Shown here in pieces: positions 3,621-22,371 of a stretch of DNA of 64,000 nucleotides. Under the pieces are notes generated by a model. It did not search any database and was not told the DNA's origin. It saw only the letters and a program-made list of their open reading frames with translations. The DNA comes from a virus (Duplodnaviria > Caudoviricetes): the IMG/VR virus record IMGVR_UViG_3300048762_000252, positions 1-64,000 of that record; one strand, 5' to 3'. A program made the position numbers and the translations under genes. Numbering within the stretch: the stretch's first letter is position 1; each line of letters opens with the position of its first letter.

Positions 3621-5399
3621 AAAACTCAAATCAGTGATGCTAGAATTCAGGTAAAAACAAGTCAAGATCTTACCGGCGACTCTAGAATCCAGGTCACATC
3701 AAATCAAGATCAAATTGGTGAAGCATCTGTTGTTTATTTGGAAGGTCAAAACCAATATGGCATGTCTCGTATTCAGATTACCACTGAACAAACACAGACA
3801 GGTCAAACCTGGATCAATAACCAAACAACACAAGATCAAACCGGCGACTCTAGAATCCAGGTTACATCAAGTCAAGATCAAACCGGTGACTCTGCAATTC
3901 AAAACACAACCAATCAAATTCAAATTGGAAATGCAAGATTCCAGATCACAGTAATTACTGATCAACTTGGAAAAACAAATATTTCTACTCCCGGTCAGGA
4001 TTGGAGATATTGCTTTGGAAAGTCTCGAATTCAAGTTACCTCGTCACTGAAAACCCAAGTGGGTGTTACAAGAATTCAAGGTACCGCTGGATTAAAGACT
4101 CAAGTGGGTATTTCTAGAATCCAGGTGACGGCTCCACTAAAGACTCAAGTGGATGTCTCTAGAATTCAAGGTACCGCTGGATTAAAGACCCAAGTTGGTG
4201 TCTCGCACATTGTCGTTACATCAAATACCAACAAGACGCTAATAGGTGTTTCTAGAATCCGAGTCACAGCACTAAAAACTCAAGTTGGTGTCTCCAGAAT
4301 TCAACTTACGGTTCCATTAAAAACACAAAGTGGTCTTTCAAGAATCCAGGTCACGATTCCAAAGATTCAAGTTGGAATTGCAAGGGTCCAAAACACACCG
4401 ACTCAAACTCAAGTTGGGGTTTCAAGAATTCAAGAAACGGCACCATTGAAGACTCAAGTTGGTGTCTCTCACATTGTCGTCACATTAACGACCAACAAGA
4501 CGCTAATAGGTGTCTCTAGAATCCAAATCACATCGCCAGTTCAGAGTCAGGTTAGTGTTTCTAGAATCCAAATCACATCGCCAATGAAGATTCAAATGGG
4601 TGTTTCTAGAATCCGGGTGACGGCTCCATTAAAGACTCAAGTTGGTGTTTCTAGTATTCAAGTTGGCGCTTCTGGATTGGAAACTCAAATTGGAATTTCA
4701 AGAATCCAAATAACTGGAAAGAAGAGTCAAATTGTTGGTGCTTCTAAAATTCAGGTATCTGCATTAGAAACACAAATTGGTGTTTCTAGTATTCGTAACA
4801 CTACAATCGAAGCATTGACCGGCGCTTCGAGAATTCAGGTCACTGCTAGATTGGTTACTCAAGTTGGGATTTCAAGAATTCAAATACTAGTTGAAAAACC
4901 ACAAGTTGGCATTTTGAGAATTCAGAGTACTACTTCAAAGATTCAAGTTGGTTTATCAAGAATTCAGATAACCAATTCCTTTGCTCATTTTGGAATTTCA
5001 AGAATTCAGATAATGGCGGCTGGATCGGAAACTCAAGTTGGGGTTTCAAGAATTCAGGTAACCATTTCAAAGACGCAATTTGGCTTATCAAAAATCCAAG
5101 CAACCACAATACAGACTCAGCTTGGTGTTTCAAACTTAAGATATAAAACTCAAACACCTAGTATTCTTGGTGTGTCTAAAATTCAGGCAACCACTGAATT
5201 AAGTCAATTTGGTGTTTTAAGAATTCAGAAAACCGCCGCTGGAACGACGCAAACTGGTATCGGTCGGATTCAGGTCAGAAATGCTGTTAGCCAGCTAGGT
5301 ACATCCTGCTTTACGCAAAGGAGCACTCAACAAATGACGGGTACCATTCGTATCCTATCTAACAGATTTGGAATTGTTAACTCAATGATGTGGCTATAA
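1..5399 (+). CDS. Very long repeat protein (15-17 aa unit KTQTGLSRIQVTTPG), probable virion fibre/structural protein; 5' end outside window
   Basis: Frame open from the window start; about 100 copies of a Q-x-G-x-S-R-I-Q unit; lies just upstream of neck gene 13, where T4 has gene 12/wac. Confidence 0.75.
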   Translation, partial: TQTGLSRIQVTAGLKIQTGLSRIQVTAGLKTQTGLSRIQVTTPGKTQTGLSRIQVTTPGKTQTGLSRIQVASNQKTQTGLSRIQVTGLKTQSSLSRIQVTTPGKTQTGLFRIQVTAGLKTQTGLSRIQGTAGLKTQTGLSRIQGTAGLKTQTGLSRIQVTAGLKTQTGLSRIQVTTPKIQTGLSRIQVTSALKTQLGISKIVVTSTTTKTQTGLSRIQVTTPGKTQTGLSRIQVTSALKTQLGVSKIVVTSTTTKTQTGLSRIQVTTPGKTQTGLSRIQVTAGLKTQTGLSRIQVTSALKTQLGVSKIVVTSTTTKTQTGLSRIQVTAGLKIQTGLSRIQVTAGLKTQTGLSRIQVTAGLKTQTGLSRIQVTTPGKTQTGLSRIQVTTPGKTQLGVSRIQVTTPGKTQTGLSRIQVASNTKTQSSLSRIQVASNTKTQTGVSKIVVTSTTTKTQTGLSRIQVTTPGKTQSSLSRIQVTTPGKTQTGLSRIQVTSALKTQLGVSRIQVTSSHSQTSISRIQVTAPLKTQLGVSRIQVTSFHSQTGISRIQVTSPLQTQTGISRLRVTTPRTQTGISRIQKTATIATQLAIAHILVTTTAQKNQTALARVQKTTSIIQTAVAHLVVTSTTQQTINGVARIQSSAQKTIAGISKLVVTSTTTQVQSATARITATTSQQLGAAARIQITTPQSLAGVGRIQVTSSHSQTSISRIQVTTPGKTQTGLSRIQVTTPGLKTQTGLSRIQVTSALKTQLGVSKIVVTFTTTKTQTGLSRIQVTSALKTQLGVSKIVVTFTTTKTQTGLYRIQVASNQKTQTGLSRIQVTTGLKTQTGVSRIQVTSPGKTQTGVSRIQVTTGLKTQTGLSRIQVTTPGKTQTGVSHIVVTSTTTKTQSSLSRIQVASNTKTQTGVSKIVVTSTTTKTQTGLSRIQVASNTKTQTGVSKIVVTSTTTKTQTGLSRIQVTTPGKTQTGLSRIQVTTPGKTQTGLSRIQVASNQKTQTSLSRIQVTTPGLKTQTGLSRIQVTSALKTQLGVSKIVVTFTTTKTQTGLSRIQVTTPGKTQTGLSRIQVASNQKTQTGVSRIQVTTGLKTQTGLSRIQVTSALKTQQTGVSRIQVTAGLKTQTGLFRIQVTAGLKTQTGVSRIQVTSALKTQLGVSKIVVTSTTTKTQSGLSRIQVASNQKTQSSLSRIQVTAGLKTQTGVSRIQVTTPLKTQISDARIQVKTSQDLTGDSRIQVTSNQDQIGEASVVYLEGQNQYGMSRIQITTEQTQTGQTWINNQTTQDQTGDSRIQVTSSQDQTGDSAIQNTTNQIQIGNARFQITVITDQLGKTNISTPGQDWRYCFGKSRIQVTSSLKTQVGVTRIQGTAGLKTQVGISRIQVTAPLKTQVDVSRIQGTAGLKTQVGVSHIVVTSNTNKTLIGVSRIRVTALKTQVGVSRIQLTVPLKTQSGLSRIQVTIPKIQVGIARVQNTPTQTQVGVSRIQETAPLKTQVGVSHIVVTLTTNKTLIGVSRIQITSPVQSQVSVSRIQITSPMKIQMGVSRIRVTAPLKTQVGVSSIQVGASGLETQIGISRIQITGKKSQIVGASKIQVSALETQIGVSSIRNTTIEALTGASRIQVTARLVTQVGISRIQILVEKPQVGILRIQSTTSKIQVGLSRIQITNSFAHFGISRIQIMAAGSETQVGVSRIQVTISKTQFGLSKIQATTIQTQLGVSNLRYKTQTPSILGVSKIQATTELSQFGVLRIQKTAAGTTQTGIGRIQVRNAVSQLGTSCFTQRSTQQMTGTIRILSNRFGIVNSMMWL

Positions 5400-5402
5400 A
5401 TA
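5395..5402 (+). promoter_or_regulatory. T4-type late promoter TATAAATA overlapping upstream stop codon
   Basis: Exact TATAAATA, 5 nt before GTG at 5408. Confidence 0.8.
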
Positions 5403-5407
5403 GGAGT

Positions 5408-6256
5408 GTGTTCTACATTTATTTAATCACAAATACGCAAAATAATAAGCATTATGTTGGGTTCACCAGCAAATCTGTTGATGTGAGATGGAAACAGCAT
5501 GTTCATGCTGCCAACGGTATCAATAAAAAATCAAGTTATCTCTTACATAGAGCTATTAAAAAATATGGTGTGAGTAATTTTACGGTAGAAACTATATTGG
5601 AAACACAGGATAGAAATTATGCTTTGAATGAATGTGAACCAAAATTTATTCAAAAGTATAATAGTTATTGGCACAACCATCAAGGCTACAATATGACGCT
5701 TGGTGGCGGCTCTTCCGTTGTTCTAGAAGATCATCCTAATGCAGAAGCTATTAGAGAGAAACTTCGAAATAATAGTAAGGGACATATTCCATGGAACAAA
5801 GGCAAAATAAATTTGTATTCAGAAGAAGTGCGCCGGAAAATGGGAGCATCTAATATTGGAAGAAAAGCCTCGGAAGAAACCAAAACGAAAATGAGTCTTG
5901 GTCGTCAAGGCTCTTTTAATGCAATGTACGGAAAAACTCACAGTGTGGAAACAAAGGCAAAACAAAGTCAAGTTAAATTAGGAAAATTTGCTGGTGACTT
6001 ACATCCGCTTTGGGGAACACATAGATCGGAAGAGACAAAAGCTAAGATACGGAAAAAACAAATTGGCAAACTAAATTTAGCAACGTGTAAAAATTATATT
6101 GTTTATCATCCCGACGGAAACATAGAAACATATAGGGGTATTTCTTTTTTTGCACAAAAATATAATCTTAATAAAGAGACAATTTACACATCTGTTATGA
6201 AAAAAAGAAAATTAAAAAATGGAATGAGGGTAATGATTTATGGCAAATCCAACTAA
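5408..6256 (+). CDS. GIY-YIG homing endonuclease with NUMOD3 repeats
   Basis: YIYLITN...HYVG...RWKQH motif, GYNMT, SEETKxKMS repeats; start moved to GTG after late promoter. Confidence 0.9.
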   Translation: MFYIYLITNTQNNKHYVGFTSKSVDVRWKQHVHAANGINKKSSYLLHRAIKKYGVSNFTVETILETQDRNYALNECEPKFIQKYNSYWHNHQGYNMTLGGGSSVVLEDHPNAEAIREKLRNNSKGHIPWNKGKINLYSEEVRRKMGASNIGRKASEETKTKMSLGRQGSFNAMYGKTHSVETKAKQSQVKLGKFAGDLHPLWGTHRSEETKAKIRKKQIGKLNLATCKNYIVYHPDGNIETYRGISFFAQKYNLNKETIYTSVMKKRKLKNGMRVMIYGKSN

Positions 6257-6983
6257 CCGTCAGGAACTTATCGACTGGTGTATGAGAAAACTTGGACAAA
6301 ATGTGATTGAGATCAACGTGGACCCGGATCAAGTTGAAGATCGCATTGATGAAGCATTTTTGATGTTTCAGCAGTTCCATATGGATGCTGTAGAAAAGGT
6401 TTGGCTGCGACATCAGCTTACTGCACAAGACATCGCAAACGAATATATTACAATTCCGCCTCCGGTCATTGCGATCACTCGTGTTCTGCCGATTGGAAGC
6501 TCAAATCAGAGTATGGGAATGTTCGATATCCAATATCAGCTCCGTTTAAATGATCTCTACACTTTTACATCTACATCAATCGTTCATTACGATATTATGC
6601 GTAAGCACTTGGCGCTCTTAGAGTTCGAATTTAATGTTGATCCTGGAATCCAATTTACCCGACACCAACAACAACTTGGTATCAATTGGGATTGGAAAAA
6701 TTCAGTTGCAGTTGGAAGTAATATAATCATTGAATGTTACAGAATTTTAGATCCAGCGACATGGCCAGATGTTTATAACGACAAATGGCTTAAAGATTAT
6801 TGCACATGTTTGATAAAACTCCAATGGTCGAGTAATTTGCAAAAATATGCCGGGGTTCAATTGATTGGCGGTTCCCAGTTAAATGGTACAGAATTGTATC
6901 AACAAGCTCTTGCCGAGAAAGATAAGTTGGAAGAAGTGTTGCAATCCAGTTATGTTTTGCCCATCGATTTCATTCTTGGTTAA
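6240..6983 (+). CDS. gp13: Neck protein (T4 gp13-like)
   Basis: ELIDWCMRKLG..VIEINVDPDQVEDRIDEA and WLKDY...KLQWSSNLQKYAGVQLIGGSQLNG motifs. Confidence 0.92.
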   Translation: MANPTNRQELIDWCMRKLGQNVIEINVDPDQVEDRIDEAFLMFQQFHMDAVEKVWLRHQLTAQDIANEYITIPPPVIAITRVLPIGSSNQSMGMFDIQYQLRLNDLYTFTSTSIVHYDIMRKHLALLEFEFNVDPGIQFTRHQQQLGINWDWKNSVAVGSNIIIECYRILDPATWPDVYNDKWLKDYCTCLIKLQWSSNLQKYAGVQLIGGSQLNGTELYQQALAEKDKLEEVLQSSYVLPIDFILG

Positions 6984-7012: not shown

Positions 7013-7900
7013 ATGCCGAACAATAGAAAAACTCACGAATGGTTTGTAGAGCAAGCCGATCTCATTTATGGGAAAGACGCTTTCATATATTTGGAACGAT
7101 ATGAAACGGCGAGAAAACCGATTACAATTAAATGCATAGAGTGTGGTCGTGAATTTAAGCGAGTTCCAAATCTTCATTTAAGACAACCGCATGGTTGTAT
7201 TTCATGTGCTCAAATGACCGAACGATGCACAGAGATTTCACCAATTCAACATGAAATTTTGGAAGGATTGATTATCAGCGACGGTTGTGTGCATCGGTTT
7301 CGGCCTGCTGATAGACTGACCACGCCTACACTTCAGTACAAGAGTGTGGAATCGGAGTTTGTTGATTTTTTGGTAGAAAATCTTCCATTCAAAGAATTTT
7401 CTAAGCAAATTATAGAAGCTCAGGAAAATATTGACATTTGTGGTGTTTTATGTAATCAAAGACAAATTACTAAAATAGAAACCCGCTCAGATAAATCTCT
7501 TATTCCATATTGGGAACGCTGGTACAATGGCGAAGCAAAACATGTGCCTGAAGATTTTGTACTCACGCCGTTAACCGCACGAGTTTGGTTTTATGGCGAC
7601 GGCAGCAGTTCGATTTATTCAACCGGCGAAAACGATACTTCCAGAGTCACTGTAAGATTTTGTACTCAATCATTTACTTGGGATGATTGCGAACGACTTT
7701 GCGAATTATGGAAAGCCAAAGATGTTCCTTTTCATGTTATTAAAGACCGAGATAAGCCAATGTTAGTAATCAACAAAGCTGATTATGTTGACCGATTCTT
7801 CACATATATTGGAGAACCAGAAATAGAAAGTTTCCGCTATAAATGGAAATCTCCCAATCCTTCACGCCGAATTCAAACCACAGTATCATCAATCATCTAA
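7013..7900 (+). CDS. LAGLIDADG homing endonuclease with N-terminal Zn-ribbon
   Basis: ILEGLIISDG and VWFYGDGS motifs, CTQSFT, C-terminal YKW; TG-n-TATAAT upstream. Confidence 0.85.
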   Translation: MPNNRKTHEWFVEQADLIYGKDAFIYLERYETARKPITIKCIECGREFKRVPNLHLRQPHGCISCAQMTERCTEISPIQHEILEGLIISDGCVHRFRPADRLTTPTLQYKSVESEFVDFLVENLPFKEFSKQIIEAQENIDICGVLCNQRQITKIETRSDKSLIPYWERWYNGEAKHVPEDFVLTPLTARVWFYGDGSSSIYSTGENDTSRVTVRFCTQSFTWDDCERLCELWKAKDVPFHVIKDRDKPMLVINKADYVDRFFTYIGEPEIESFRYKWKSPNPSRRIQTTVSSII

Positions 7901-7939: not shown

Positions 7940-10900
7940 ATGGCCATCTTTAGAGACATGCAAGAAACCGAATCTACGGACATCACACAGTACCCTGGAT
8001 ACGCCAAGTTATCCGGCGAAGAACAGAAGAAGGTGGCGGAAACGTACACCAATGTTTACAATAACAACCAGGAAAAACTTGGCTATAGAATTGCTCAAGG
8101 TATTGCTTTCGCCACAGCCAAGCAGATGTGTGAAGAAACCATTGGTCAAAAAATGACAAAAATGGCTGCTGGAAACAAATGTGTATGGTGTAAAAAAACA
8201 ATAGGTGCTACTTCAACATGCCCACACTGTAAGGGCGAACAAAATAGTCCTGAATCTTACTCAAAAAGAAAGGCTGTAAAGGCTGTAAGAGAAGAAGTAG
8301 TAGACGAAGCACGAAAATCCGGCTGGAAAAATGGAATTGGCAGAGAACAAACTGTTCATTACCAGTCGCAACCTGGGCATCCAGGAAAAGACGGATCGAG
8401 ATGTATGCCTGCGTGCGGAGCCGGATGGACATTAGACCATCTTCCAACAAATGACAAATCTAAAGTGACATGTGGTTCATGCTTACAAAAAGTCAACGGA
8501 ACAGGAATTTACAAGAAATCCATGCATGAAGATGAAATTTCTGAAGCAAGAGTGAATGATGCTCAATTTGCCAATCATGCTTCAAAGGAAGCTTGGAAAG
8601 CCACTACAAAAGCTCGAAAATCTCAAAGTTATGAAGACCATTTTCGTGCTGGTAAACTTCATACTGCCGCTGCGAAATTACATGACGACGCCGCAAAGAG
8701 CAAAGAACATCAAGGTCAAGCTGGTGTTCATTATAGCATTGCTGCGTCAAACCGTAAATATGAAAAAGGGAATCCAAATCCATCTAAGCATGACCCGAAG
8801 ATGTGGGAAGGGCAAGATCCCGCTCCTGGACTGATTGCCGATTGTGGGGATGCGATGGACGAAACTCAAAATCCAATCAGCACAAGAAGCGCAAAATATG
8901 TATGTGCTGGTTGCGGCCATTCCATGAGAGGTAGCACAACTTCTATGATGGGAAAACGGTGTCCAGCATGTAATTCATACAGTTGGAAATCTCCGGTGAG
9001 AAAAGAAGAAGAAGATATCGTTGACAATAAGATCAGCAAGCCGGGTCCGACATATGAAGCTCAAACTCCGTACACGTACCGAAAAGCTGAACCATTGCCG
9101 CATAGTGGTGAGACTGGTGGTGTTTATGCCAAGAATGTGCAAGATTTGGAAACAGAAAAAATACTTAGCAAAATCCGTCCTAGCAAAACAGTGAAAGAAG
9201 GCGATGCCGAAGATTTTCAAGCCAAGAATGATGCTTTAGTTGGAATGACGGAAGACGAAATCAATGAGTTCGCCATTTCACAGACCAGCAAGCGTTTCGT
9301 TATGAAAGACGGTGTGAAGCATCGTGTTATTGGTGTTCGTGATGGTGAGTTGGTTACGGAACCTGTTACTAAATCAAAACAAAATTATAAAGATGCTCAT
9401 GGTGGACATGATTGGGTCGATAATTATGGTATGAAAAAGGAAAATGAAGATGCTTTAGCCAGCGCAGCCAATCCTGAAGAGGGTGGCGCTGCCCAACAAC
9501 TTCGTCTCAATCACGATAAGATGTGTGCGGGTTGTGGTTCCATTCATCCAATTGATGTGATGTGTTTTAATGGTAGAACTCATTCCGAAGCTGGTATGGG
9601 ATCTGGAGACATCCTCAAACAAAACCATCAAGCAAAGGGTATGCAAGGAATGGACGCTGTTCAGATGAAAGTCGAAGAGTCCGATCCATTGATTTCCGCT
9701 GCCGCAAGTTATCTTACCAATCGTGCAAAGGTTTCTGGACTAATGGAATCTGTTCTTCCTGGCACGGGTGCTGGTGAGATTCAAAAATCAAATTTGGCAC
9801 AGAAGTGCCCGAACTGCGGTGCTTCAGCAATCGAAATGCACCAATTCGGTTCTGGTATCAGAAAGTGCGCTTGTGCATCAGGCGACTGTTCATGCAATTG
9901 TGGAGATGGCAAATGTAAGTGTGTTGATGGCGTCTGTAAGTGCGACGATGGAAAATGCATGGGCGCTGGAGACATCTTACAGCAGAATCATGCGGTAAAG
10001 GGAATGAAGCAGGCTACTATTCCTCAAGCAACTCCACAAGTGAAAGAAGATGAAATCGATGAAGCTCTTTGTCCGAGATGTAGGGGGAAAGGGTGTAGAC
10101 GGTGCAATTTTCACTTTGTCCCCAAAAAAGAAAAGGTTCCCCCACAGGTGAAAGAAGATGAAATCGATGAAGTTCACATTGGTTTCAAAAATCTTCAGAA
10201 AAAACTGGAAGGCAAAGGTCATAGCAAGGAAAGCGCCGGTAACATCTGTCACGCAATTATGATTAAGAAATACGGTCATGCCGTGCATGAAGATGAAGCA
10301 GTTTTTACTGAAACCGAACTTAAAGAATGGGAAACCCGTGGTGCTAAAGATAACATCAATCCCGATGATTGGAACAAACCAGAACCAAAACCAGATCCAA
10401 ATGAAAGAGATTGCTGGCAATGTAAAGCTGGACGGCATCATGATCTAAAAACCCATGAAGCCAATCTTCGAAACGAAGAAGAACTTATTAACCGGACATT
10501 TAGTGAAGAAGTAATAACAGAAGCCGAAGCAAGACTACAAGAATCCATTGAAGCAGTGTGGGTAGAAAATTTCTATCCGGCGAAGCCGATGGAAGAGCAT
10601 TGTGGTCATTGCAGCCATCCACAGTCATTTCATGAAAGTGATGGCTGTTCCACTTGTGATGAATGCGGTGGGTTTACAACCGAATCTGTAGATGAAAATG
10701 AAAAAAAGCATGAAATTTGTTTCTGTGGTCATGAATATGGTGGTCACGGAAAGGGCGGATGTAAGAAATGCAAACATGATGGTGTTACAGATGCCACTCG
10801 TGCGGCGCATCAGTTTCGTAAGAACGACTATCGAGAACGCTTTGAAGCGGAGTATGCAGAGATCTTTGCAGCGCAGCAAGGCAAAATCAATACCACACTT

Positions 10901-12931
10901 GTCAATGCAGCGATGAATTGGTTGCCTGAAGCGCAAGATGCTAATGTATTGCGAGCATGGGTGGCGGGATCAAAAAGAAATAATCCACAAAAATCTAAAC
11001 CGTCGAATAGAAAACCTTGGAGATGTGCTGAGTGTGGAAAAAAGAATCCAAAAGGTGTTGATCGTTGTGAATGCGCTGATGTGAATGAAGGTTATGTATC
11101 TCCAGGAACGAGATGCCATGATTGCGGAGCCACAAAGGAAGATCATACAAAAAGAAAGGCCGGTCCTGGTTATGCTGTCTGTAAGAAATTTGTATTGAGT
11201 CCTGAAGATGGTGGACGGCCAGAACGCAGAAAACTAAAAGAAGGATACAATGATATTGAGCATGGAGACCACGTTACTTTCAATCATCCATTAAGGGGTA
11301 GCGACAAAACTCCACAACAGGGCAGAGGCAAAGCAGTGATGCGTGGCCCAGGCGGTTGGGTAGTGAATATGGGTGGTGCTCACGGCACACCGGGTATCGT
11401 GTCTTCAGACAACTATGTAAGCCATCGTAAAGCCAAGAGCAAAGCTCCAAATTCTCTAACAACGAAGCGATTGGTTGGAGAAGATGAATATGATGACCAT
11501 GTGAAATCATATAATGTATCTGGAAATCCCGCTTCAGATCCAAAAAAAGAATCCGCTAGGAAGAGAAAGAATCAAGCACGCAAAGATCGTGATGATATTA
11601 GGCGTAGCATGGGCTTGACCAAAGTCAAGGGTGCTGTAAGTGGAAAGACTTATTGGGAGTCGGAAGATTCACATGATCCAACCGAATCTCCTGATTATGT
11701 GACACATGAAAACCGATTTGATCCGCCAAAACCTAAACCAAAAAAGAGACGCCAATCTTTAGCAAACATGTATCATCATGCCATGCTTGATATGGGAATG
11801 AAAGCGTATCGTGGATCGGACGGCAAGCTCCGTTATGAATCCGAAAATTGTAATGAATCTGAAGAAATATCTGAAGCCGCCAAATGTTCAAAATGCGGAA
11901 GATCTGTTCATTCGGCAGTCCTCAAACACAAAATAACAAGTACGCCTACATTCAAGAAGCACATTCTTTGCCATGGTTGTTTTGATAAGCAAATCAGTGA
12001 AAATGAATATGAATCCGGCGTGACATATGAAGAGCTTCAAAATGCTGGTTTCAATGAAAGTGAAATCAAAAGAATTTTGGAAATTGACAAAAATTCAACA
12101 CCCTGGAAACGAATGGTAGGAAATATACCAGATAGCATGAGTTACGATATGGATTGGAGAAAACCTGCTCCGAAAGATCGTGGTAATATTGCAACAACAA
12201 CGGTTCCTTTTCGTAAAGAAGAAGTTGATCCAATCATTAGTTCGGCGGTGGGATACATCAACCAACAACTTGAAAATGCTGGTGGGCCGATCACTGAAGA
12301 TTTTTCAGTTCATCAACGCCTTTTGGACAATGGGTTCAAAAAGCACAAAACTGAGAATCAAACACAAGTTTACAGTCATCCAGAGCATGGAGAATTCCAC
12401 ATCAAAACAAGTAATGGAATGCATTCACCAACAGAACATCACAAATCTAATGGTGATGTAGTAGGTTTAAGTCATGTTTCACATTCTTATCTTAATAAAA
12501 TGGGATTGAAACCTTCTAGCAGCATGTCAGAAGAAGAAATGAATGAATGGCGTAACAAAAAAGTTGAAAATTTAAACGTATTATCAAAAAGAGAAATTAA
12601 AAGACGTGAACATAATGGAGGACTTTGCCGGAAGTGTCTTCAACCACATAATAATGCTTCAGGGAATCTATGTTTTAGTTGTGCGTTAGGTGAAGAAGAA
12701 ATGAACGAATGGATTGCCGGAAAGAATTATGACAAACCTTATAAACATTCTAAGCACTGGCGTAGTGAATTTGCAGATCCAGGCGGAAATAGTTCGCTTC
12801 GGGCGGCTTCTAAGTCAAACCCACGAAATAAACCTTGTCCAACTTGCAAGGAACCAAATAAGCTGACAGCAAAAGATGTTGCTCAAAAATACCAGTGCAA
12901 CGACTGTGCTGATAGGGACGAAAGATGCTAA
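7940..12931 (+). CDS. Putative head-internal polyprotein (1663 aa; many Zn-ribbon/basic modules separated by acidic hydrophobic-X-E linkers)
   Basis: TAAATA at 7898 and AGGAG RBS; modular composition; function inferred. Confidence 0.6.
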   Translation: MAIFRDMQETESTDITQYPGYAKLSGEEQKKVAETYTNVYNNNQEKLGYRIAQGIAFATAKQMCEETIGQKMTKMAAGNKCVWCKKTIGATSTCPHCKGEQNSPESYSKRKAVKAVREEVVDEARKSGWKNGIGREQTVHYQSQPGHPGKDGSRCMPACGAGWTLDHLPTNDKSKVTCGSCLQKVNGTGIYKKSMHEDEISEARVNDAQFANHASKEAWKATTKARKSQSYEDHFRAGKLHTAAAKLHDDAAKSKEHQGQAGVHYSIAASNRKYEKGNPNPSKHDPKMWEGQDPAPGLIADCGDAMDETQNPISTRSAKYVCAGCGHSMRGSTTSMMGKRCPACNSYSWKSPVRKEEEDIVDNKISKPGPTYEAQTPYTYRKAEPLPHSGETGGVYAKNVQDLETEKILSKIRPSKTVKEGDAEDFQAKNDALVGMTEDEINEFAISQTSKRFVMKDGVKHRVIGVRDGELVTEPVTKSKQNYKDAHGGHDWVDNYGMKKENEDALASAANPEEGGAAQQLRLNHDKMCAGCGSIHPIDVMCFNGRTHSEAGMGSGDILKQNHQAKGMQGMDAVQMKVEESDPLISAAASYLTNRAKVSGLMESVLPGTGAGEIQKSNLAQKCPNCGASAIEMHQFGSGIRKCACASGDCSCNCGDGKCKCVDGVCKCDDGKCMGAGDILQQNHAVKGMKQATIPQATPQVKEDEIDEALCPRCRGKGCRRCNFHFVPKKEKVPPQVKEDEIDEVHIGFKNLQKKLEGKGHSKESAGNICHAIMIKKYGHAVHEDEAVFTETELKEWETRGAKDNINPDDWNKPEPKPDPNERDCWQCKAGRHHDLKTHEANLRNEEELINRTFSEEVITEAEARLQESIEAVWVENFYPAKPMEEHCGHCSHPQSFHESDGCSTCDECGGFTTESVDENEKKHEICFCGHEYGGHGKGGCKKCKHDGVTDATRAAHQFRKNDYRERFEAEYAEIFAAQQGKINTTLVNAAMNWLPEAQDANVLRAWVAGSKRNNPQKSKPSNRKPWRCAECGKKNPKGVDRCECADVNEGYVSPGTRCHDCGATKEDHTKRKAGPGYAVCKKFVLSPEDGGRPERRKLKEGYNDIEHGDHVTFNHPLRGSDKTPQQGRGKAVMRGPGGWVVNMGGAHGTPGIVSSDNYVSHRKAKSKAPNSLTTKRLVGEDEYDDHVKSYNVSGNPASDPKKESARKRKNQARKDRDDIRRSMGLTKVKGAVSGKTYWESEDSHDPTESPDYVTHENRFDPPKPKPKKRRQSLANMYHHAMLDMGMKAYRGSDGKLRYESENCNESEEISEAAKCSKCGRSVHSAVLKHKITSTPTFKKHILCHGCFDKQISENEYESGVTYEELQNAGFNESEIKRILEIDKNSTPWKRMVGNIPDSMSYDMDWRKPAPKDRGNIATTTVPFRKEEVDPIISSAVGYINQQLENAGGPITEDFSVHQRLLDNGFKKHKTENQTQVYSHPEHGEFHIKTSNGMHSPTEHHKSNGDVVGLSHVSHSYLNKMGLKPSSSMSEEEMNEWRNKKVENLNVLSKREIKRREHNGGLCRKCLQPHNNASGNLCFSCALGEEEMNEWIAGKNYDKPYKHSKHWRSEFADPGGNSSLRAASKSNPRNKPCPTCKEPNKLTAKDVAQKYQCNDCADRDERC

Positions 12932-13809
12932 CTGAAAAATATACAAATTTGGATGACACAAAGGCATACGGTTACAAAGAACATCCGCTTCATAAACATT
13001 TTCGTAACGCTGGATATCATTTGAGTTATTCCAATCACGATGCCGATGGAAATCACACGCATCAATACATAAAGGGGCAACAACCTTCTTCAATAGAGCC
13101 ATCAAGTAAAGATTATCATAGCATTATTACACATCACAATGACAATCCAAAAACAATGAAGTCAAGTTGGAGACACATAGAAAAACTAAAAGGGCATTTG
13201 CATGGCAGAGATCCTTATAAAGATATTAGTGGAACAGGCCATGCTTCATTGAAAGATCATTTAAAATCTGATTCAGATTATCGTAGTGAAGAGACAGATC
13301 CTTTAATTGCGGCGACATTAGGTTATATCGACCAACAGATTGCCAATGCTGGCGGTTCATTACAAACTCTGACTGAAGGCGATGCGGAACATGAAAAATA
13401 CAAAGACCATACAAAAAATCCATATCACCAAATTTTGACTCAACATGGATTCGTTCATAAGTCTACTGAACACAAAAAGAATCGGTTTGCGGCTAACAAT
13501 CCTAAAGCCGATTACACAGAACACCGATATGAACATCCGGGGCACGGAAAATCACATGTTTTGATTACACAAGATCATTCTAAAGGCGGTGGTGGCTATT
13601 CATTTAGTGATGATAAAGGACATTCTTTCATTCATCGTCACGAACAATCGAACGGAATTATGAGTCCTTCGACTGGAAATTCTAAGAACCAGCTTCATCG
13701 GAGTTTGTCTTATCATTATGGCATACCAAAGGGCGTTAAGCCACCGCCATTGACAGCCGCAGAAAAGAAGTATTCTCATTTGAAACCGGAGTATAAGCAA
13801 AACGAATGA
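12925..13809 (+). CDS. His-rich two-module protein, putative head-internal protein
   Basis: Two LxxxG[FY] modules joined by DPLIAATLGYIDQQIANAGG linker shared with the upstream gene. Confidence 0.6.
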   Translation: MLTEKYTNLDDTKAYGYKEHPLHKHFRNAGYHLSYSNHDADGNHTHQYIKGQQPSSIEPSSKDYHSIITHHNDNPKTMKSSWRHIEKLKGHLHGRDPYKDISGTGHASLKDHLKSDSDYRSEETDPLIAATLGYIDQQIANAGGSLQTLTEGDAEHEKYKDHTKNPYHQILTQHGFVHKSTEHKKNRFAANNPKADYTEHRYEHPGHGKSHVLITQDHSKGGGGYSFSDDKGHSFIHRHEQSNGIMSPSTGNSKNQLHRSLSYHYGIPKGVKPPPLTAAEKKYSHLKPEYKQNE

Positions 13810-16394
13810 AACTGGATATCTACAATTCGAAACAGAAGGTCGCTGCCGATAATAAAATGGTCTCTCCTGGCATCACTGATCGTTTTGAGAAAGATGTCGC
13901 AAAAGATGAAGGCGACTACGGAGACATACAGAAGAAATTTGCTCCTGGTCCCACATACGAAACTGAACGTAGAGACAATCCACGATTCAAGAAAAAGTGT
14001 CCTGCCAGCAATGAGAAGCACGATTGGGAATGGGTAGAAAATCATAAACACACTCCTGGTTCGCAACGGATGCTTGGTTTTTGTGATAATTGTGGTGCTG
14101 AACATCCCCGTAACAACAAAAAAATGAAGGAAGAAACCGCTATGAACCTATTGAAAGACATTCTTGCAGAAGCTCAGTCGTTTGATCCTAAGCACACAAA
14201 GCATACCGAAAATCCAATCGCTGATTGCGCTGTGTGCGGAAAAGGCAATCATGTGCCAGCAAAACATTTTGGTCGAGCTTTAGGTGGCGAAAACAATCAA
14301 TCCGTAACTGAATGGTCCGTTGAAGACGAACTAAAAGCTCAAGCGAGAAAGAAGGTGGGAAAAACATCTCAACCTCAATCAGAAAAGTGGTCTGTTGCAG
14401 ATGAACTGAAAGCTCAAGAAAGAGATCGTAAATTCCGAAAAGAAGCTGAAGGTGATTATGAGAAGCCACCGTTTGCTGGTTTTCATAAATGGGCGGATGA
14501 AAGGCAAGACCAAAGAGAAAAGAAACGTGACCGTAGACAAAAAGAATTGGATAAGTGGAATAAAAAACCAATAAAAGAAACCGATGAGTGGCCGCATAAT
14601 CTCGTTTACCCAAATCACAAACCGCATTTCTGTAAGAAGTGTAATCGTTGGGCTGATTACTTAGGCCAACATGGTGCGAAATGTAGACTTGCAGCGGACA
14701 AGGTTGAAAAAGAAAAATTGAAAGAAGCTTTAAAACCAAGCGGTATGTGGAAAGGAAGAGACTGTCATTGGGTTATGGATAATCAAGGAAATATTCATCC
14801 CAAACCATTTCCTACAGCACAGCAAGTGAAACAACAGAGCAAGCAAAAAACAGAAGCAGAGATTCCTGGCAACGACGAAGCTGAAATGTGCCCCGAATGT
14901 CACAAGCTTCATGCTCCATCTGTTCCCTGTCCTGCGAAGAAACTTTTGTTTGGACAAGATGGTGTCAACGAAGACAATCAATATCACAAACATTTAACGA
15001 AAGCAGGATTTAAGAAAAGACAAGGCAATGATTCTGCATACGACCATTCTGATGGTTCAAAAGTGATCTTAAAAAAGGATGGTTCTCATAGCGTTAGTTA
15101 TCCTGCTATTCCTTACGGGGATTTTACAATGAGGGGAACTCGTAGCGGAGATACTCCATCAAAAAATAGAATGGCTCGTTTGAAAGGAACCGATGTAGAT
15201 GATTTAAAATATAATTTGCATCTATCTGGGCATCCAGTTGATACAACATACCGTCCGAAACAGAGAGTTAAGGAAGAAACCATCACAGAGACGAACAAAT
15301 TCACTCACAAAATTTGGACTGGTCCGTCTGGTGTAAAGCAATACGCCGCCAAGCTTCACAAGCACTATCCGAATACGAAAGCTGGTACAGAACATGTCTA
15401 TGTTCATACTGATCATCCAGCGGAACATGTAGCAAATACTCTAAAGAACAAACTTGGGATGTCTGGGTTCACTCCTGGTGGCCGAGGTTGGAGTACTCAG
15501 GAACATAGTGTGCAACATAATCTGAAGAAAAAAGCTGCTGTAACAGAATCCACTCCAGTAGAACCAAAGGTAGTAGGACACTTTATTCAGACACATCTTC
15601 CATCTGGCAAAAAGCATCGTGGAGCGATGATGGACACCCATCTTTCTGAATTGGGTTCTGGTGGGCGTCTATCAACAGGTGAGAAAGTGACGAAGGATCA
15701 CATTCTCAATCATTGGAACGCTCAACAGCCGAAGACTTACAAATATGAATGGGACAAGGAAAATCTTAAAGAAGACGAAAAAGAAACTCGTCCGAAGTGC
15801 CCACACTGCACTTTGCCATTAGATGTTTGTAAGATACATCAACAAAGACAACGCCGCAGTGCGCTTCAACCGGATTCAGATGAAAATGAATGTCCTAGAA
15901 AACGGGAAAAGGAGCGAGATGAAAATTTGGATGAAGCCAAAATAAAGAAGCCAAAGCAATTTGACAAAATGGCTCATGTGCGTGCGATTGCTCGTAATGT
16001 AGTTGGTCAAATTCCAAAAGGCCAAGTCATCGTACCAAAGAAAGACCGCAAACCAAAACATAAAAAAGATCCGTTAGATATCGAGGAGGAAAATTCGATG
16101 GGATTTTCGCAATTCACAGAAGCAGCAGAAACTCCACACGCCCATGCTGCAAGACTACATGATGAAGCAGCGAAACATGCTAAAAGTTCTGCTTCGATGA
16201 TTGACCGACCGTACAAAGATGCGTGTGACGCATCATATGCAACAAAACATCCTGAAATTTCCAAATTCATTCAGCATAACACAATGGGACGCCACTCTGG
16301 TTTTATACCGCACCTTAACGGGCGGGTAGTATTTCATAAAAAGCTGGCGCAAATGCATAGAAATGTTGAAAGTAAGCAGCCATCAGATGTATAA
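13806..16394 (+). CDS. Putative head-internal polyprotein (862 aa)
   Basis: Same modular pattern (MKEE, ILAE, VTE, IKE, LKE, VNE, VKEE, ITE, LDE boundaries). Confidence 0.6.
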   Translation: MKLDIYNSKQKVAADNKMVSPGITDRFEKDVAKDEGDYGDIQKKFAPGPTYETERRDNPRFKKKCPASNEKHDWEWVENHKHTPGSQRMLGFCDNCGAEHPRNNKKMKEETAMNLLKDILAEAQSFDPKHTKHTENPIADCAVCGKGNHVPAKHFGRALGGENNQSVTEWSVEDELKAQARKKVGKTSQPQSEKWSVADELKAQERDRKFRKEAEGDYEKPPFAGFHKWADERQDQREKKRDRRQKELDKWNKKPIKETDEWPHNLVYPNHKPHFCKKCNRWADYLGQHGAKCRLAADKVEKEKLKEALKPSGMWKGRDCHWVMDNQGNIHPKPFPTAQQVKQQSKQKTEAEIPGNDEAEMCPECHKLHAPSVPCPAKKLLFGQDGVNEDNQYHKHLTKAGFKKRQGNDSAYDHSDGSKVILKKDGSHSVSYPAIPYGDFTMRGTRSGDTPSKNRMARLKGTDVDDLKYNLHLSGHPVDTTYRPKQRVKEETITETNKFTHKIWTGPSGVKQYAAKLHKHYPNTKAGTEHVYVHTDHPAEHVANTLKNKLGMSGFTPGGRGWSTQEHSVQHNLKKKAAVTESTPVEPKVVGHFIQTHLPSGKKHRGAMMDTHLSELGSGGRLSTGEKVTKDHILNHWNAQQPKTYKYEWDKENLKEDEKETRPKCPHCTLPLDVCKIHQQRQRRSALQPDSDENECPRKREKERDENLDEAKIKKPKQFDKMAHVRAIARNVVGQIPKGQVIVPKKDRKPKHKKDPLDIEEENSMGFSQFTEAAETPHAHAARLHDEAAKHAKSSASMIDRPYKDACDASYATKHPEISKFIQHNTMGRHSGFIPHLNGRVVFHKKLAQMHRNVESKQPSDV

Positions 16395-16460
16395 ATACAA
16401 ACGGCTGTATGTAAAGTAGTGAGCTTCACATACAGCCTGAACACAATGGAGTATGCCATC

Positions 16461-17099
16461 ATGCCTGAAGACAATTTATCACCATTACATTTTGAAGGGA
16501 TGCCATGCCGGAAGTGTGGATCTACAAGAAGGTATATGCGGTATAAAAATTGTGTTAATTGCCATCATGACGCAGATCGAAAATGGCAGCAAGAAAATTT
16601 GGAAATTAAAAGAAAATGGCAACAAACAAATCCAGAAAAACGTCGTAAATCAAAACGAAAATGGCAACAAACAAATCCAGAAAAGGTGCGAGAATCAAGT
16701 CATAAATCATGTCGAAAGTGGAGACAAGCAAATGCAGAAAGGTGTCGTGAGCGTAATCGCATTTGGCGATTAGCAAATTCGAAAACGATGCGGGAGTGCA
16801 ATCGTGCCGCTGCCGTTAAAGCCAGAGCAAAACGAAAACAAGCTGTAGGTTCACATACTACACAGGAATGGATCGATCTAAATGAGCAGTATGGATATCA
16901 TTGTCTTCGTTGTAAAAAACATGAGTCGGAATTTCCAATAAATTCAAGGACAGGACGACCGTTTCCAATCGAACAAGATCATATCATTCCGCTTTCAAAA
17001 GGTGGTACAAATTGGATTACGAACATCCAGCCACTTTGTCATGATTGTAACGGAATGGGTGGCAAAGGTATAAATACTACTGACTTTCGGTCTGAGTAA
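16461..17099 (+). CDS. HNH homing endonuclease
   Basis: CLRC...DHIIPLSKGGTNWITNIQPLCHDCN; KRKWQQTNPEK repeats; TATAAATA at 16390; GGAG before 16461. Confidence 0.9.
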   Translation: MPEDNLSPLHFEGMPCRKCGSTRRYMRYKNCVNCHHDADRKWQQENLEIKRKWQQTNPEKRRKSKRKWQQTNPEKVRESSHKSCRKWRQANAERCRERNRIWRLANSKTMRECNRAAAVKARAKRKQAVGSHTTQEWIDLNEQYGYHCLRCKKHESEFPINSRTGRPFPIEQDHIIPLSKGGTNWITNIQPLCHDCNGMGGKGINTTDFRSE

Positions 17100-17101: not shown

Positions 17102-17332
17102 ATGAAAACATTTAGTGCTTTTCTTCTGGAAAATTACGATGCGGTTTTGAAACAGCACGGCTATGAGAATCCGCAAAAGGGAGATGACGGACACATTACG
17201 TATTCGAAGAATCCCGCTGATCAAATCCTGATTGACGTTCCTGGCAAGGAATGGCATCACATGGTAAAAGGCGTCGTCAAAATTGTCGGAAACATCAAGG
17301 ACGATTCGCTGGAGCGGTTTCTCGCCAGATAG
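17102..17332 (+). CDS. Small internal-protein-like product with T4 IP-type capsid targeting leader
   Basis: N-terminus MKTFSAFLLE resembles T4 IP leader MKTYQEFIAE; LKQHGY module. Confidence 0.6.
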   Translation: MKTFSAFLLENYDAVLKQHGYENPQKGDDGHITYSKNPADQILIDVPGKEWHHMVKGVVKIVGNIKDDSLERFLAR

Positions 17333-17453: not shown

Positions 17454-17717
17454 TTACTCCATTTCCGGTCCAAATCCCATGATGAAATCTTCGGCGGCGA
17501 GAATTTCGTCGGCTTCTTCGTCATCTTCAGGTTGTCTGCGAAGCTGCCGTCGAACAAACGACCGATGCAGGCGTAGCTGTCCGTCTTCCGGGTCTTCGTT
17601 TTCGCCGTCGTAATCATCGGCTTCCTGTTGATTCAGTTGGTAAAGATCATCATCGATTTCGTAGGTGCCGTATTCGTCAAAACGGTCGTCAAGGCTTCTG
17701 TCGTCATCGAATTCCAT
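17454..17717 (-). CDS. Small very acidic hypothetical protein
   Basis: GGAG RBS; D/E-rich 87 aa. Confidence 0.7.
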   Translation of the reverse strand: MEFDDDRSLDDRFDEYGTYEIDDDLYQLNQQEADDYDGENEDPEDGQLRLHRSFVRRQLRRQPEDDEEADEILAAEDFIMGFGPEME

Positions 17718-17727
17718 TTTGTCTCCC

Positions 17728-17931
17728 TTACCAAGTCATCATTTCAATCAGGTTGGTGACGCCGATTTCCGCTTTGCGCTGAACATGATCGGCAGCATCA
17801 TAAAGCCCTTGGACATTTGCCAGCCGGATCAGAGCGGCCACGGTCTGCGGCTTGTTGTTCAGGCTATCGTAGAAGGCCCGAAGCCATTCCAGTTGTTCGG
17901 CGGTGCCGTATTGTGCTTGAGGGGCGTTCAT
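17728..17931 (-). CDS. Hypothetical protein
   Basis: GGAG RBS, operon packing. Confidence 0.65.
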   Translation of the reverse strand: MNAPQAQYGTAEQLEWLRAFYDSLNNKPQTVAALIRLANVQGLYDAADHVQRKAEIGVTNLIEMMTW

Positions 17932-18094
17932 TATTCTCCACCTGGATTGCGGTGCTGGCTTGGCTGGTTTGTTACGCCGGGAAGTACCGAAATCGTGATC
18001 AATTGCTTGGATTCAGACAAAATAATTCCAGGAAGGAGCACAGGGAGGGATACAACGGTCACTTCTACGAAAAACGGAATGAAGTACGTGCGTG

Positions 18095-18310
18095 TCATTT
18101 GGTCTCCAAGGTGTGAATCATGATCTTTTTGCACGCCTGGAGAGTACCGATCCAGCGGACACCCTTCGTGCCAGTGATACCATACACATTCTGTGTGTTG
18201 CCACTCAATCCCAAAGATCCATTGATGATTGTGCGACCGGATGGCTTGCCGTTTATCAGCACGTCGAAGTTGCCGGTGACAACTTTCTCGAATGTGATTA
18301 CGTTCTTCAT
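18095..18310 (-). CDS. Hypothetical protein, leaderless
   Basis: TTGCTT-18-TAATGT promoter 6 nt before ATG. Confidence 0.7.
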   Translation of the reverse strand: MKNVITFEKVVTGNFDVLINGKPSGRTIINGSLGLSGNTQNVYGITGTKGVRWIGTLQACKKIMIHTLETK

Positions 18311-18384
18311 GTCTTTACATTAGCACATAGATGTATCAAAAAGCAATAGATCCAGAAAATTTAATTCTGGAGTGGGTTTCTTCA

Positions 18385-18681
18385 TTAGAATCCTTCTTCC
18401 TTTTTGCGCTGTTCGACGACCTTGTATTCGGCCATCAGATTGCTATGGATGAAGTAGCAGCGACGGGAATCGTCCGGTATGATCGGAGCCGTGGCTTCCG
18501 GGTTAAAGATCATACCCAAGAAGCTGAAACCCTTGTAGTTGTTGGTTTTGAACAAGACGCCTTCCAGGAGGGAAGCGATAGCCTGACGCTCGAAAACGTC
18601 TTCCGGCTTGCTGTGTTCTAGGCGGAAATTCACCGTCCAGAGCAGTTCGGCTACATCGAAGGTCTTGCGTGATTGACTCAT
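18385..18681 (-). CDS. Hypothetical protein (MSQSRKTF...), leaderless; the upstream in-frame extension may be a separate gene
   Basis: TTGACA-18-TATACT 6 nt before ATG at 18681. Confidence 0.65.
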   Translation of the reverse strand: MSQSRKTFDVAELLWTVNFRLEHSKPEDVFERQAIASLLEGVLFKTNNYKGFSFLGMIFNPEATAPIIPDDSRRCYFIHSNLMAEYKVVEQRKKEEGF

Positions 18682-19100
18682 ATTCAGAGTATACCAGAAA
18701 GATGCATCTATTGTCAATGGGTTCGCAAAAAATTTATTCATACGTTGGCGAATGGCAGGAAGTTCTTTTTGTACCTTATCGTAGGCGGTTTCAGCTTGTT
18801 CTCTGGTGGTAACGATGCCTTCTCGTGCTTGGACGGCGATGATGCAATCCACCATGAGCTTCCGGCGATTCACCGGATTGTCCAAAATTTTGCGAAGATT
18901 TACCCGTTTGTTCTTCATAGGTATCTTAATGGGGTGGTTGATGCAACACGACATCGAGAGATTCTGATTTTGGTAGAGTTCGTGACATCCACCAGTTTTT
19001 TGCACAATCAAGACCCGGTTTGCGCTTAGGAAGCAAAGACAGCAAGCTCATTACAATCATGGTGGCGATATTTAGTTTCCAAATTAGAGGCATAAAGTCC

Positions 19101-19364
19101 TTAGAAAAATTTGAGAGTGTTGCCAGATACCCAATCTCGAACCTTAATTTCCTGATGGGCTGCAATCAGTTCTGGCACTGAATCAGCAGCGTCGAAAATT
19201 TCGTTGTCAAATTCCCATCGTGGATCTTCGGTGGAATGCCTATTGGTGTATGAATCCATTTTAACATTCCATCCACTATTGGTTTCGTGTTCACGCACCA
19301 TTAACCGTAGAGACGGCGAGAACAACCAGCCGTGTGTTTCAAGATTTTTCTGAGTGAGTTGCAT
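19101..19364 (-). CDS. Hypothetical protein
   Basis: AGGA RBS, ORF. Confidence 0.65.
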   Translation of the reverse strand: MQLTQKNLETHGWLFSPSLRLMVREHETNSGWNVKMDSYTNRHSTEDPRWEFDNEIFDAADSVPELIAAHQEIKVRDWVSGNTLKFF

Positions 19365-19543
19365 GTTAGTTTCCTGTTAAAACCATTGCTTGCTACGATT
19401 CCACACCCTACCTTTTGGTAAAGGAACGATAAAACGATGAGTTTTTATATACCAAGCTCGTTTCCCATCCCGTGGAATAAGGCGTCCATCTGGAAGTTCT
19501 CGCAAGTATTGCTTCATGAAATCTTTGAGTTGCATTTAGTTAC

Positions 19544-19993
19544 CTATACTTTGCTGTGTGCTTCAGTTTGGCTTCGTTCTTTGCCAGCATCATTGGCGTC
19601 CACAGGCGCTACAACAGCCTTTGGCTTGGGTTCCCGTACCGAGATGGGGTATTCGTTCGCCCATGCGTAGAAGGTCTTATAATCGCCCCATTGCCAGGAG
19701 TACCGGCCACAGTGCATAGCGGCTCCGTGTTCCACACCACGAAGATGCGCCATTTCGTGAGCAATAACCATTGCCAAAGTTGCGTGGTTAAGTGTATATG
19801 GAGGTTTCGGTAAGCGGATTGTACCATCCCAACTGCCTACCCAGGCACATCCACTAATACGACCTTTTTTGGAATATATGATTTTAAATTGGACATGTTT
19901 GGCCTGATTTGGATTCAATTCTTCTCTGGCAATTCGAGTGAAAATTTTCTTGAGATCTCTTGTCGAATATACTGTAAAGTTGTTGAGTTTCAC
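19544..19993 (-). CDS. SprT-like zinc metallopeptidase (C-terminus possibly frameshifted)
   Basis: VIAHEMAHLRGVEHG (HExxH..H); TTGACT-18-TATACT promoter, AGGAG RBS, GTG start. Confidence 0.7.
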   Translation of the reverse strand: MKLNNFTVYSTRDLKKIFTRIAREELNPNQAKHVQFKIIYSKKGRISGCAWVGSWDGTIRLPKPPYTLNHATLAMVIAHEMAHLRGVEHGAAMHCGRYSWQWGDYKTFYAWANEYPISVREPKPKAVVAPVDANDAGKERSQTEAHSKV

Positions 19994-20047
19994 AAATTTA
20001 CTCCTAATTGTAGTATAGCACACTGCGGTGGCTAAAGTCAATAGGAT

Positions 20048-20566: not shown

Positions 20567-20606
20567 TAACGCTATTTATCATACCGTAAGAAGAAAATTT
20601 GTCAAA

Positions 20607-22172: not shown

Positions 22173-22329
22173 GATCTGTCTGTTCTTTTAGGACAGCCTT
22201 TACTGCGTCTCGCCATGCGTCCCATTGCTCTGACGTAGGGTTCATCGTGTTCAGAACCGCCGATTGTGCTCTCATCATTTCCCGTTCGGCTACTATGCGG
22301 CTGGTCATTTGTCTCCTAAACTGGTTTAA

Positions 22330-22357: not shown

Positions 22358-22371
22358 AGTGATGTGCGGAC

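Follow-up and report, generated by a model that had tools for sequence, protein, structure and literature searches.

Candidate capsid-cargo polyproteins in the late gene block of a metagenomic T4-like phage

What do three consecutive genes encode that, together with their neighbors, separate gp13 from gp14 by 17 kb in the late block of a T4-like phage? The question is raised by the IMG/VR record IMGVR_UViG_3300048762_000252 (166,602 bases, rated about 79% complete), of which the first 64 kb, hereafter the window, were analyzed. The phage is distant from T4, with a gp23 at most 60% identical to that of pelagiphages, methylophilales phages and cyanophages. Its gp13-gp14 gap holds the open reading frames (ORFs) of the proteins A (1663 amino acids (aa), 7940-12931, +), B (294 aa, 12925-13809, +) and C (862 aa, 13806-16394, +), for which the coordinates and lengths of an initial annotation were exact. 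Capsid-delivered proteins are the earliest weapons of a phage, acting before any phage gene is expressed, and T4 makes each of them from a gene of its own. Here it is proposed from the sequence that A, B and C may be polyproteins loaded into the prohead and cut by the head protease gp21 into roughly 30 small, mostly basic products, a reading to which we give about an even chance. The three would best be explained as members of a family of late "cargo polyproteins" specific to a lineage of environmental T4-like phages.

Each of the three proteins appears to be a chain of small modules that fold independently, with short acidic linkers between them that end in hydrophobic-x-Glu and are often doubled. 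A has an N-terminal leader and about 22 small modules of zinc-ribbon-like, helical, SH3-like beta and His-rich alpha/beta kinds; B has two His-rich modules and one "DP-L-I...G-Y" helix; and C has about 9 modules. The A/B and B/C junctions are overlapping stop/start codons, and a joining of A, B and C by frameshift was ruled out by these ordinary overlaps; relatives fuse or split the proteins at module boundaries. Lys, Arg and His make up 19-24% of all three proteins, which agrees with the basic, His-containing modules described initially, and His alone reaches 4.3% in A, 10.9% in B and 6.0% in C versus 0.4-2% in other structural proteins. The accompanying description of the modules as poor in Glu did not hold overall (8.5% in A, 5.4% in B and 7.5% in C), although the acidic residues are clustered in A (z 3.7) and C (z 2.7), but not in B (z 0.4); they are clustered as well in an 884-aa ORF farther downstream. 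Features that had gone unmentioned are the doubled sites, the conserved leader and the zinc-ribbon-like modules of A, which has 66 Cys and 22 CxxC motifs forming at least eight clear zinc-ribbon or knuckle pairs. Sites in an acidic context define about 22 segments in A, 9 in C and 2-3 in B, so that the dozens of products, perhaps 40 or more, that had been anticipated are an upper bound. Within B there is a single candidate site, the last residue of B is Glu, and in two cases a natural ORF end directly follows Glu. No family was matched by whole A, B or C in Pfam and PHROGs, which also gave no peptidase domain in any of the three, and eight single modules had no match in Pfam at E values up to 10.

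All linkers quoted in the initial annotation are present, in the kind of position that it gave, and the enrichment of hydrophobic-x-Glu over shuffled sequence, together with the acidic clustering, makes the site grammar strong for A, weak for C and absent for B. A has 37 motifs versus 20.7 in global shuffles (z 4.0), and 41 versus 26 (z 3.9) in local shuffles, a stricter null in which residues were exchanged within 12-residue blocks, keeping the acidic linkers acidic. With local composition kept, 25 A-family homologues have 455 versus 285 (z 11.8). C has 13 versus 9.5 in global shuffles (z 1.3), with a z of 1.5 at most for C itself and a C-family z of 2.0, and B has the two that were expected. 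Among the controls at local composition, the mirror motif had a z of 2.8 and hydrophobic-x-Asp of -2.2, other spacings were depleted, and eight control structural proteins had a z of 0.4 for hydrophobic-x-Glu.

Nine sites of A are doubled, having hydrophobic-x-Glu, two residues and again hydrophobic-x-Glu (5-residue spacing), at 8285-8308, 8522-8545, 9245-9268, 10040-10063, 10148-10171, 10304-10327, 10499-10522, 12524-12547 and 12686-12709 (all +). They follow the consensus [M/V]-x-E-[D/S/E/A]-E-[I/L/V]-x-E, after which comes Lys or a small residue. Over 26 family members 69 doublets were counted versus 4.4 expected, each close relative of A having 3-5 versus 0.2-0.3. Elsewhere in the genome, doublets were found in the gp22 scaffold (4) and the 884-aa ORF (4), with at most one in every other protein examined.

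In T4, the head protease is active within proheads only. The phage encodes a gp21 prohead protease orthologue (44124-44777, +; phrog_207, E 4e-76) that is 39% identical to T4 gp21 and keeps the residues aligned to T4 His85 and Ser140; it is presumed to be the processing enzyme. The gp22 scaffold (45908-47386, +) has 25 hydrophobic-x-Glu motifs and a grammar like that of A. Its longest ORF (45788-47386) starts 120 nucleotides (nt) before the likely start, and a T4 late promoter, TATAAATA, lies within this longer ORF at 45862, 40 nt before Met41; gp22 probably begins at Met41 of the listed ORF. In gp23 (47423-48835, PHROG match), the maturation site reported initially, LLRE then AAP, was found at Glu66 (47609-47629, +), just upstream of the conserved VRRA motif and placed like the T4 gp23 site LTE then AE.

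The family of these proteins lies in metagenomes. A tblastn search of A, C and the 884-aa ORF against 50,697 GenBank phage records gave no match, and whole A and C also drew no match in peptide-pattern scans of IMG/VR, whereas alignment of the leader gave one locus. Large protein collections contain, as unnamed metagenomic proteins, four homologues of C and seven close ones of A, and an exhaustive HMMER search with A residues 1-1200 gave 288 hits at E <=0.001, 14 of them below 1e-30. The comparison of module content among relatives that the initial annotation had suggested shows modules gained, lost and reordered between homologues: the close relatives of A have the first 65-80 residues in common (about 70% identity) and four of the seven also the last 79, while between the termini modules are missing, reordered or fused. 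One relative (P0010) has an A-type chain fused to a B-type chain, and in three others a His-rich module is joined via hydrophobic-x-Glu to a C-type start, at what is the B/C gene boundary in this phage. The sites at aa 122, 581 and 710 of C keep the pattern in two to four homologues with reordered modules.

What is retained through this shuffling is the pattern rather than the residues. Among aligned triplets that differ from A, 45% still fit hydrophobic-x-Glu, versus 7% for hydrophobic-x-Asp and 9-29% for nine other patterns in the same test, and the Glu of the sites is conserved in 65% versus 44% for other Glu. Site 744 of A reads IGE, LDE, VTE, LDE, IPE, IDE and VDE in seven homologues. As judged from these alignments, hydrophobic-x-Glu is under selection as a pattern. 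The pattern also coincides with module boundaries. A and C were cut at their acidic-context sites, the pieces were searched with phmmer against the fetched proteins, and the ends of the matches were projected onto the targets. Of 180 projected N-terminal ends, 82 fell exactly on the Glu of a hydrophobic-x-Glu (position P1), where 4.3 +/- 2.0 were expected at random, and 120 lay within three residues of a site (random 27.9), and 19 of 58 projected C-terminal ends were exact (random 1.5); the homologues are mutually related, and part of this signal is made of linkers inherited along with their modules. This envelope test was used because an earlier test with BLAST breakpoints was weak (43% within 8 aa versus 33% at random, p 0.09). 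A helical module with the signature HIGFK is preceded by the motif in all 13 of its copies, through nine different triplets and behind either the leader or other modules, and the motif likewise precedes the SH3-like module and one module of C in unrelated contexts.

Structure predictions with AlphaFold2 (AF2) are consistent with separate folding units. The HIGFK module (A aa 745-791; 10172-10312, +) was modeled with a predicted local distance difference test (pLDDT) of 94, and the SH3-like beta module (A aa 1102-1181; 11243-11482, +) with 78-97. The latter also exists as a large family of stand-alone proteins of 45-134 aa in public metagenomes and genomes (P0044-P0166), with the core G-R-A-V-M-R-G-P-x-G-W-V-L-N-M-G-G-x-H-G-T-P, for which no Pfam family was found. 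The His-rich module, located in A at 12299-12532 (+) by alignment of paralogues, recurs in B, C, the 884-, 219- and 478-aa ORFs and a 140-aa ORF at 38092. From an alignment of nine paralogues, the copy at 39870-40133 was modeled (pLDDT 79.7, predicted template modeling score 0.67) as an alpha-beta5-alpha fold in which the ends holding the sites are disordered. Its best match to the PDB with Foldseek was the immunity factor Rv3902c (E 0.027), and its best VIA match was Mediator Med17 (Z 6.9), with the C-terminal domain of T4 MotA at Z 5.7 and frataxin at Z 5.6, all in a non-specific range; HicA, a candidate for the fold of this module, is absent among the Foldseek and VIA matches listed. In BFVD, the module matched small uncharacterized phage proteins and segments of entries named large polyvalent proteins. 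A model of A residues 1-1200 resembles beads on a string, with confident islands (11-80, 201-270, 321-350, 440-480, 751-780, 841-880 and 1101-1170) split by low-confidence stretches; in about 8 of 14 cases, a site lies near the beginning or the end of such an island in this weak model (mean pLDDT 56.8).

The linker is also repeated at the DNA level, having an 18-nt family of six copies within 9007-12546 and a 34-nt pair, 94% identical (10034-10067 and 10142-10175), that flanks one 36-aa zinc-knuckle module, and such microhomology could drive the duplication and shuffling of modules. This bears on the alternative that survives best, in which the chains are never cut: the linkers would be flexible spacers or recombination joints, and the intact, basic, multi-zinc-ribbon chain would act as one, for example in binding or condensing nucleic acids in or outside the virion. 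The DNA repeats fit this alternative, as do the many multi-domain phage proteins that are never processed and the lack of enrichment of sites in the low-pLDDT stretches of the AF2 model. However, distant homologues keep the motif with different residues and codons, and hydrophobic-x-Asp and motifs of other spacing are rarer than expected, which a spacer or a DNA joint does not explain. Asp does not take the place of Glu here, which matches the finding in T4 that Asp at P1 blocks processing (PMC9026906). The doubled grammar occurs, moreover, in gp22, which belongs to a known class of protease substrates. An uncut chain is considered unlikely.

As to a possible targeting signal, the first 70 residues of A (7940-8149, +), predicted as a helical hairpin with pLDDT 90-98, form a conserved leader. 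It is found always at residue 1, heads at least 22 proteins of 84-814 aa, and is followed in relatives by a doubled site and then by varied cargo. In this family Phe4 is invariant and Met7 nearly so, and positions 4 and 7 are those important for targeting in the capsid-targeting sequence (CTS) of T4 (PMC9026906). The T4-type CTS was taken here as a stretch of about 10 aa with an aromatic residue at 4, a hydrophobic one at 7 and hydrophobic-x-Glu at 8-10, as in IPII and IPIII of T4, which start with MKTYQEFIAE then A; A starts with MAIFRDMQE. An alignment of the leader family with T4 gp68 and gp22 in hhalign gave probabilities below 1%, a search of the leader in the ESM Atlas gave no usable match, and a ChaB-like resemblance seen by eye was dropped, as it had no support in Pfam.

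A T4-type CTS is clearly present in two other proteins of the window. The 76-aa late ORF at 17102-17332 (+) starts with MKTFSAFLLE then N, has the late promoter TATAAATA at 17069-17076, 26 nt upstream, and a compact body that fits the consensus of the His-rich module by eye; its one homologue (P0168) keeps the CTS pattern with other residues. The 650-aa protein at 49814-51766 (+) starts with MQTFFQFTE then A and has a SprT-like metallopeptidase domain; judging from this layout, it is a single cargo protein and not a polyprotein. Of the two further loci at which the initial annotation saw the same grammar, this second one therefore did not bear out the claim, while the first did through the 884-aa ORF (38511-41165, +), which has four doubled sites, His-rich modules and an architecture like that of A. 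Outside the window, three more proteins carry a T4-type CTS signal. One is an Acb1 anti-CBASS 2H phosphoesterase (genome 107892-108788, minus strand; L012:93-989) that starts, from GTG, with MKTYMQFLTE then N, matches PF23474 (E 8e-17) from residue 14 onward and has a C-terminal part that is ParB-like by eye, which suggests that this counter-defense enzyme may be pre-packaged in the head. The other two (genome 94666-95892 and 96724-97188, both on the minus strand; locus L013) have the T4-like starts MKTYRQLQDE and MNFQEFLTE, and the C-terminal stretch of the 409-aa ORF of this locus resembles the His-rich module of A, B and C.

The position of the genes is conserved as well. PHROG matches across the window follow the T4 late gene order, in which a 1770-aa repeat fiber (87-5399, +) comes first and is followed by the neck protein gp13 (6240-6983, +), while gp14 starts at 24186 and precedes gp15, the small and large terminase subunits, gp18 and gp19, with gp20 at 32697-34505. 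In related loci the gene directly downstream of gp13 is of the A family: this holds for all six that include upstream DNA (one 405-kb viral contig and five metagenomic loci, a further metagenomic locus without upstream DNA being left out), with a homing endonuclease in between in five. A C-type gene lies downstream of the A-family gene wherever the DNA reaches that far, and the order fiber, gp13, A-family and C-family is kept. In the pelagiphage HTVC008M, gp13 and gp14 are adjacent, and the gp20-gp21 gap has four small ORFs. Where 1.6 copies of the late promoter TATAAATA would be expected, there are eight, among them copies in front of the large terminase gene, gp22 and gp23; A is preceded by just a version with one mismatch, plus a strong ribosome-binding site.

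This conserved place inside the neck and head block, kept in six of six loci, speaks against a second alternative, in which A, B and C would stay in the cytoplasm as late polyproteins or multi-domain factors and not be taken into the head, being processed by another protease or not at all and serving, for example, as decoys or binders against host defenses or in the binding of metal (Zn, His). B and C, which have no targeting signal, fit such a role, no Pfam or PHROG family ties the modules to virions, and stand-alone proteins made of the SH3-like module are common, 48 of 50 short hits having no CTS. Against this, the leader is always N-terminal and has the hallmark positions of the T4 CTS, and the motif fits the specificity of the phage's own head protease, as inferred from T4. 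We regard a cytoplasmic role as quite improbable.

A second set of similar ORFs fills a further 9 kb between gp20 and gp21, and the 884-aa ORF belongs to it. Its neighbor at 35931-38090 (+) encodes an extremely acidic 719-aa protein (net charge -97) with a gp67-like N-terminal helix, one CxxC...CxxC pair and low-complexity stretches rich in Gly, Asp and Glu, like those of gp22, and is probably an enlarged prohead core protein. The last alternative, a sacrificial core or filler that gp21 would cut and whose fragments would be expelled like those of gp22 after a role in head assembly or size control, can draw on the grammar common to gp22, the place of the genes among head and neck genes, the second set at the position of T4 core genes 67 and 68 and the gp22-like acidic stretches of the 719-aa neighbor, but it is the least probable of the readings, given that the modules, unlike an acidic coiled-coil scaffold, are folded and basic and have much Cys and His, that their fast turnover among relatives fits conflict proteins and not assembly parts, and that the His-rich consensus fits, by eye, small CTS-bearing proteins, a class retained in T4 heads.

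In the preferred reading, cargo polyproteins cut by gp21, the chains would be made late and taken up into the scaffolding core of the prohead, A by means of its conserved 70-aa leader and B and C perhaps by the internal "DP-L-I...G-Y" helix or by co-assembly. Activated gp21 would then cut the linkers, as it does with gp22, gp23 and the CTS-bearing internal proteins, and about 30 small, mostly basic products would stay with the DNA and enter the cell alongside it. As the initial annotation had put forward, they might neutralize the DNA or serve as effectors. The initial annotation had made this claim for the three proteins alike. It is upheld best for the A family, through the selected pattern, the coincidence of sites with module boundaries, the doublets of gp22, the gp21 orthologue and the CTSs in the genome, and it carries over less well to B and C, given the missing or weak grammar and N-termini with neither a recognizable CTS nor the leader.

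Several further points weigh against this reading. The phage is known solely from metagenomes, without relatives among the GenBank phage records, and its homologues are not independent samples. Most relatives lack a hydrophobic-x-Glu at the CTS-like start of the leader, and in the close homologues of A the Glu is followed by Pro. As the linker is a DNA microhomology too, duplication could account for some of its recurrence within A. In the AF2 model of A 1-1200, which is too weak to test whether sites sit in linkers, mean block pLDDT is 53 at the sites versus 56.8 overall, and some motifs of A (aa 34, 65 and 856-868) lie within confidently predicted helices. To our knowledge, T4 gp21 has not been described as releasing many folded products from one chain.

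A fuller version of the cargo reading is held more tentatively. In it, the leader would bring a chain of up to two dozen mini-domains, evolvable and subject to recombination, into the prohead, gp21 would cut the doubled linkers, and the released library of zinc-binding and His-rich products would be injected as counter-defense or takeover factors of the first minutes, with the linker being both the cleavage site and the microhomology for shuffling. Many RNA viruses use polyprotein proteases, and if the reading is true, a tailed phage would use its head protease in the same manner, and this would account for the packaging of dozens of tiny, fast-evolving factors together, in fixed proportion, by way of a single targeting signal. 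The 70-aa leader and the short doubled linker would then be practical parts to load and release several foreign proteins in T4-type capsids, and a leader or CTS followed by modules bounded by hydrophobic-x-Glu would be a sequence rule for packaged cargo in metagenomic T4-like phages. Because the genome also appears to pre-package Acb1, head loading of counter-defense proteins may be a general strategy in this lineage, and the finding would matter to research on both phage assembly and phage defense.

The remaining genes of the block have features of their own. Homing-endonuclease genes, of which at least seven are interspersed among the late structural genes, are unusually dense there and include GIY-YIG, LAGLIDADG, HNH and endonuclease VII-like types, three of them behind TATAAATA; they are located at 5390-6256, 7013-7900, 16419-17099, 23481-24185, 31795-32682, 34514-34951, 43285-44127 and 48938-49804. 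The 1770-aa fiber ORF upstream of gp13 consists almost wholly of repeats of about 15 aa that are KTQTGLSRIQVTTPG-like, with 208 Lys and Arg versus 21 Asp and Glu (net +187). It occupies the position of T4 wac, and homologous repeat proteins precede gp13 in three related loci (L006, L007 and L011). Between C and gp14, a minus-strand block (17454-23205) of higher G+C content, about 45%, encodes a Ku homologue (22375-23205; PF02735, E 4e-24), a protein with a weak DUF2786 match and a weak zinc-metallopeptidase-like protein, and is possibly an inserted island.

Among known systems, the internal proteins of T4 are the nearest in mechanism. They form a diverse family in which the signal alone is conserved, at about 1000 molecules per head (PMC3012670), and are cut after the Glu of hydrophobic-x-Glu (PMC9026906). 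Like IPI, IPII, IPIII and Alt, the proteins proposed here would be late, mostly small and basic products loaded into the prohead core and cut after Glu by gp21 (peptidase S77), and this genome has both a gp21 orthologue and several N-termini similar to MKTYQEFIAE. The difference is that in T4 each product has its own gene and a 10-aa signal and is cut once (twice in Alt), whereas here a 70-aa leader precedes up to about 22 modules per chain, the acidic-context sites number about 24 and are in many cases doubled, and B and C have no signal; no sequence similarity of A, B or C to any T4 internal protein was found. The T4 core proteins gp22, gp67 and gp68 have acidic stretches dense in hydrophobic-x-Glu that gp21 degrades, which the four doublets of gp22 recall here, and the second locus lies at the position of T4 genes 67 and 68; however, these are acidic helical scaffolds without folded basic or zinc modules.

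Like T4 gp21, the related proteases of giant phages cut after Glu at short motifs, making thousands of cuts per giant-phage capsid, and redundant sites in the propeptides let the fragments clear the capsid (PMC9026906, PMC5694885). The inner-body and ejection proteins of phiKZ, 201phi2-1 and SPN3US resemble the present case in that many head-internal proteins are cut after Glu by a gp21-like protease. They differ in having one to few propeptide cuts on large proteins, whereas here every module has sites at its borders; sequence homology is absent, and the P3 residue is hydrophobic here, as in T4, and not Ala, Ser or Gly.

Polyvalent proteins come closest as a concept for a shuffled multi-domain chain that is packaged and possibly cut into parts. 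They are large, have 2-15 domains, are encoded beside virion genes and are shuffled in an arms race, and it is predicted that they are packaged, enter the cell by injection together with the DNA and are in some cases cut into domains (Iyer et al. 2017, PMC5512222). The neighborhood of virion genes is found here as well, with A, B and C lying between gp13 and gp14, and the CTS-tagged Acb1 (2H phosphoesterase) and the SprT-like protein are of typical domain types. However, none of the catalogued domains was detected in A, B or C with Pfam or PHROGs, and the modules, at 30-130 aa, are much smaller and occur in larger numbers. Many polyvalent proteins embed a peptidase, such as the zincin-like MPTase, whereas here the SprT-like domain occurs only in the separate 650-aa protein, and processing would use the head-maturation protease at linker motifs. 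A full-text literature search for phage polyproteins or packaged proteins tied to a prohead protease or a CTS found no such description. On the sequence evidence, the case would thus differ from known systems by its scale, its 70-aa leader, its modules without known effector domains and the use of the head protease at every module boundary.

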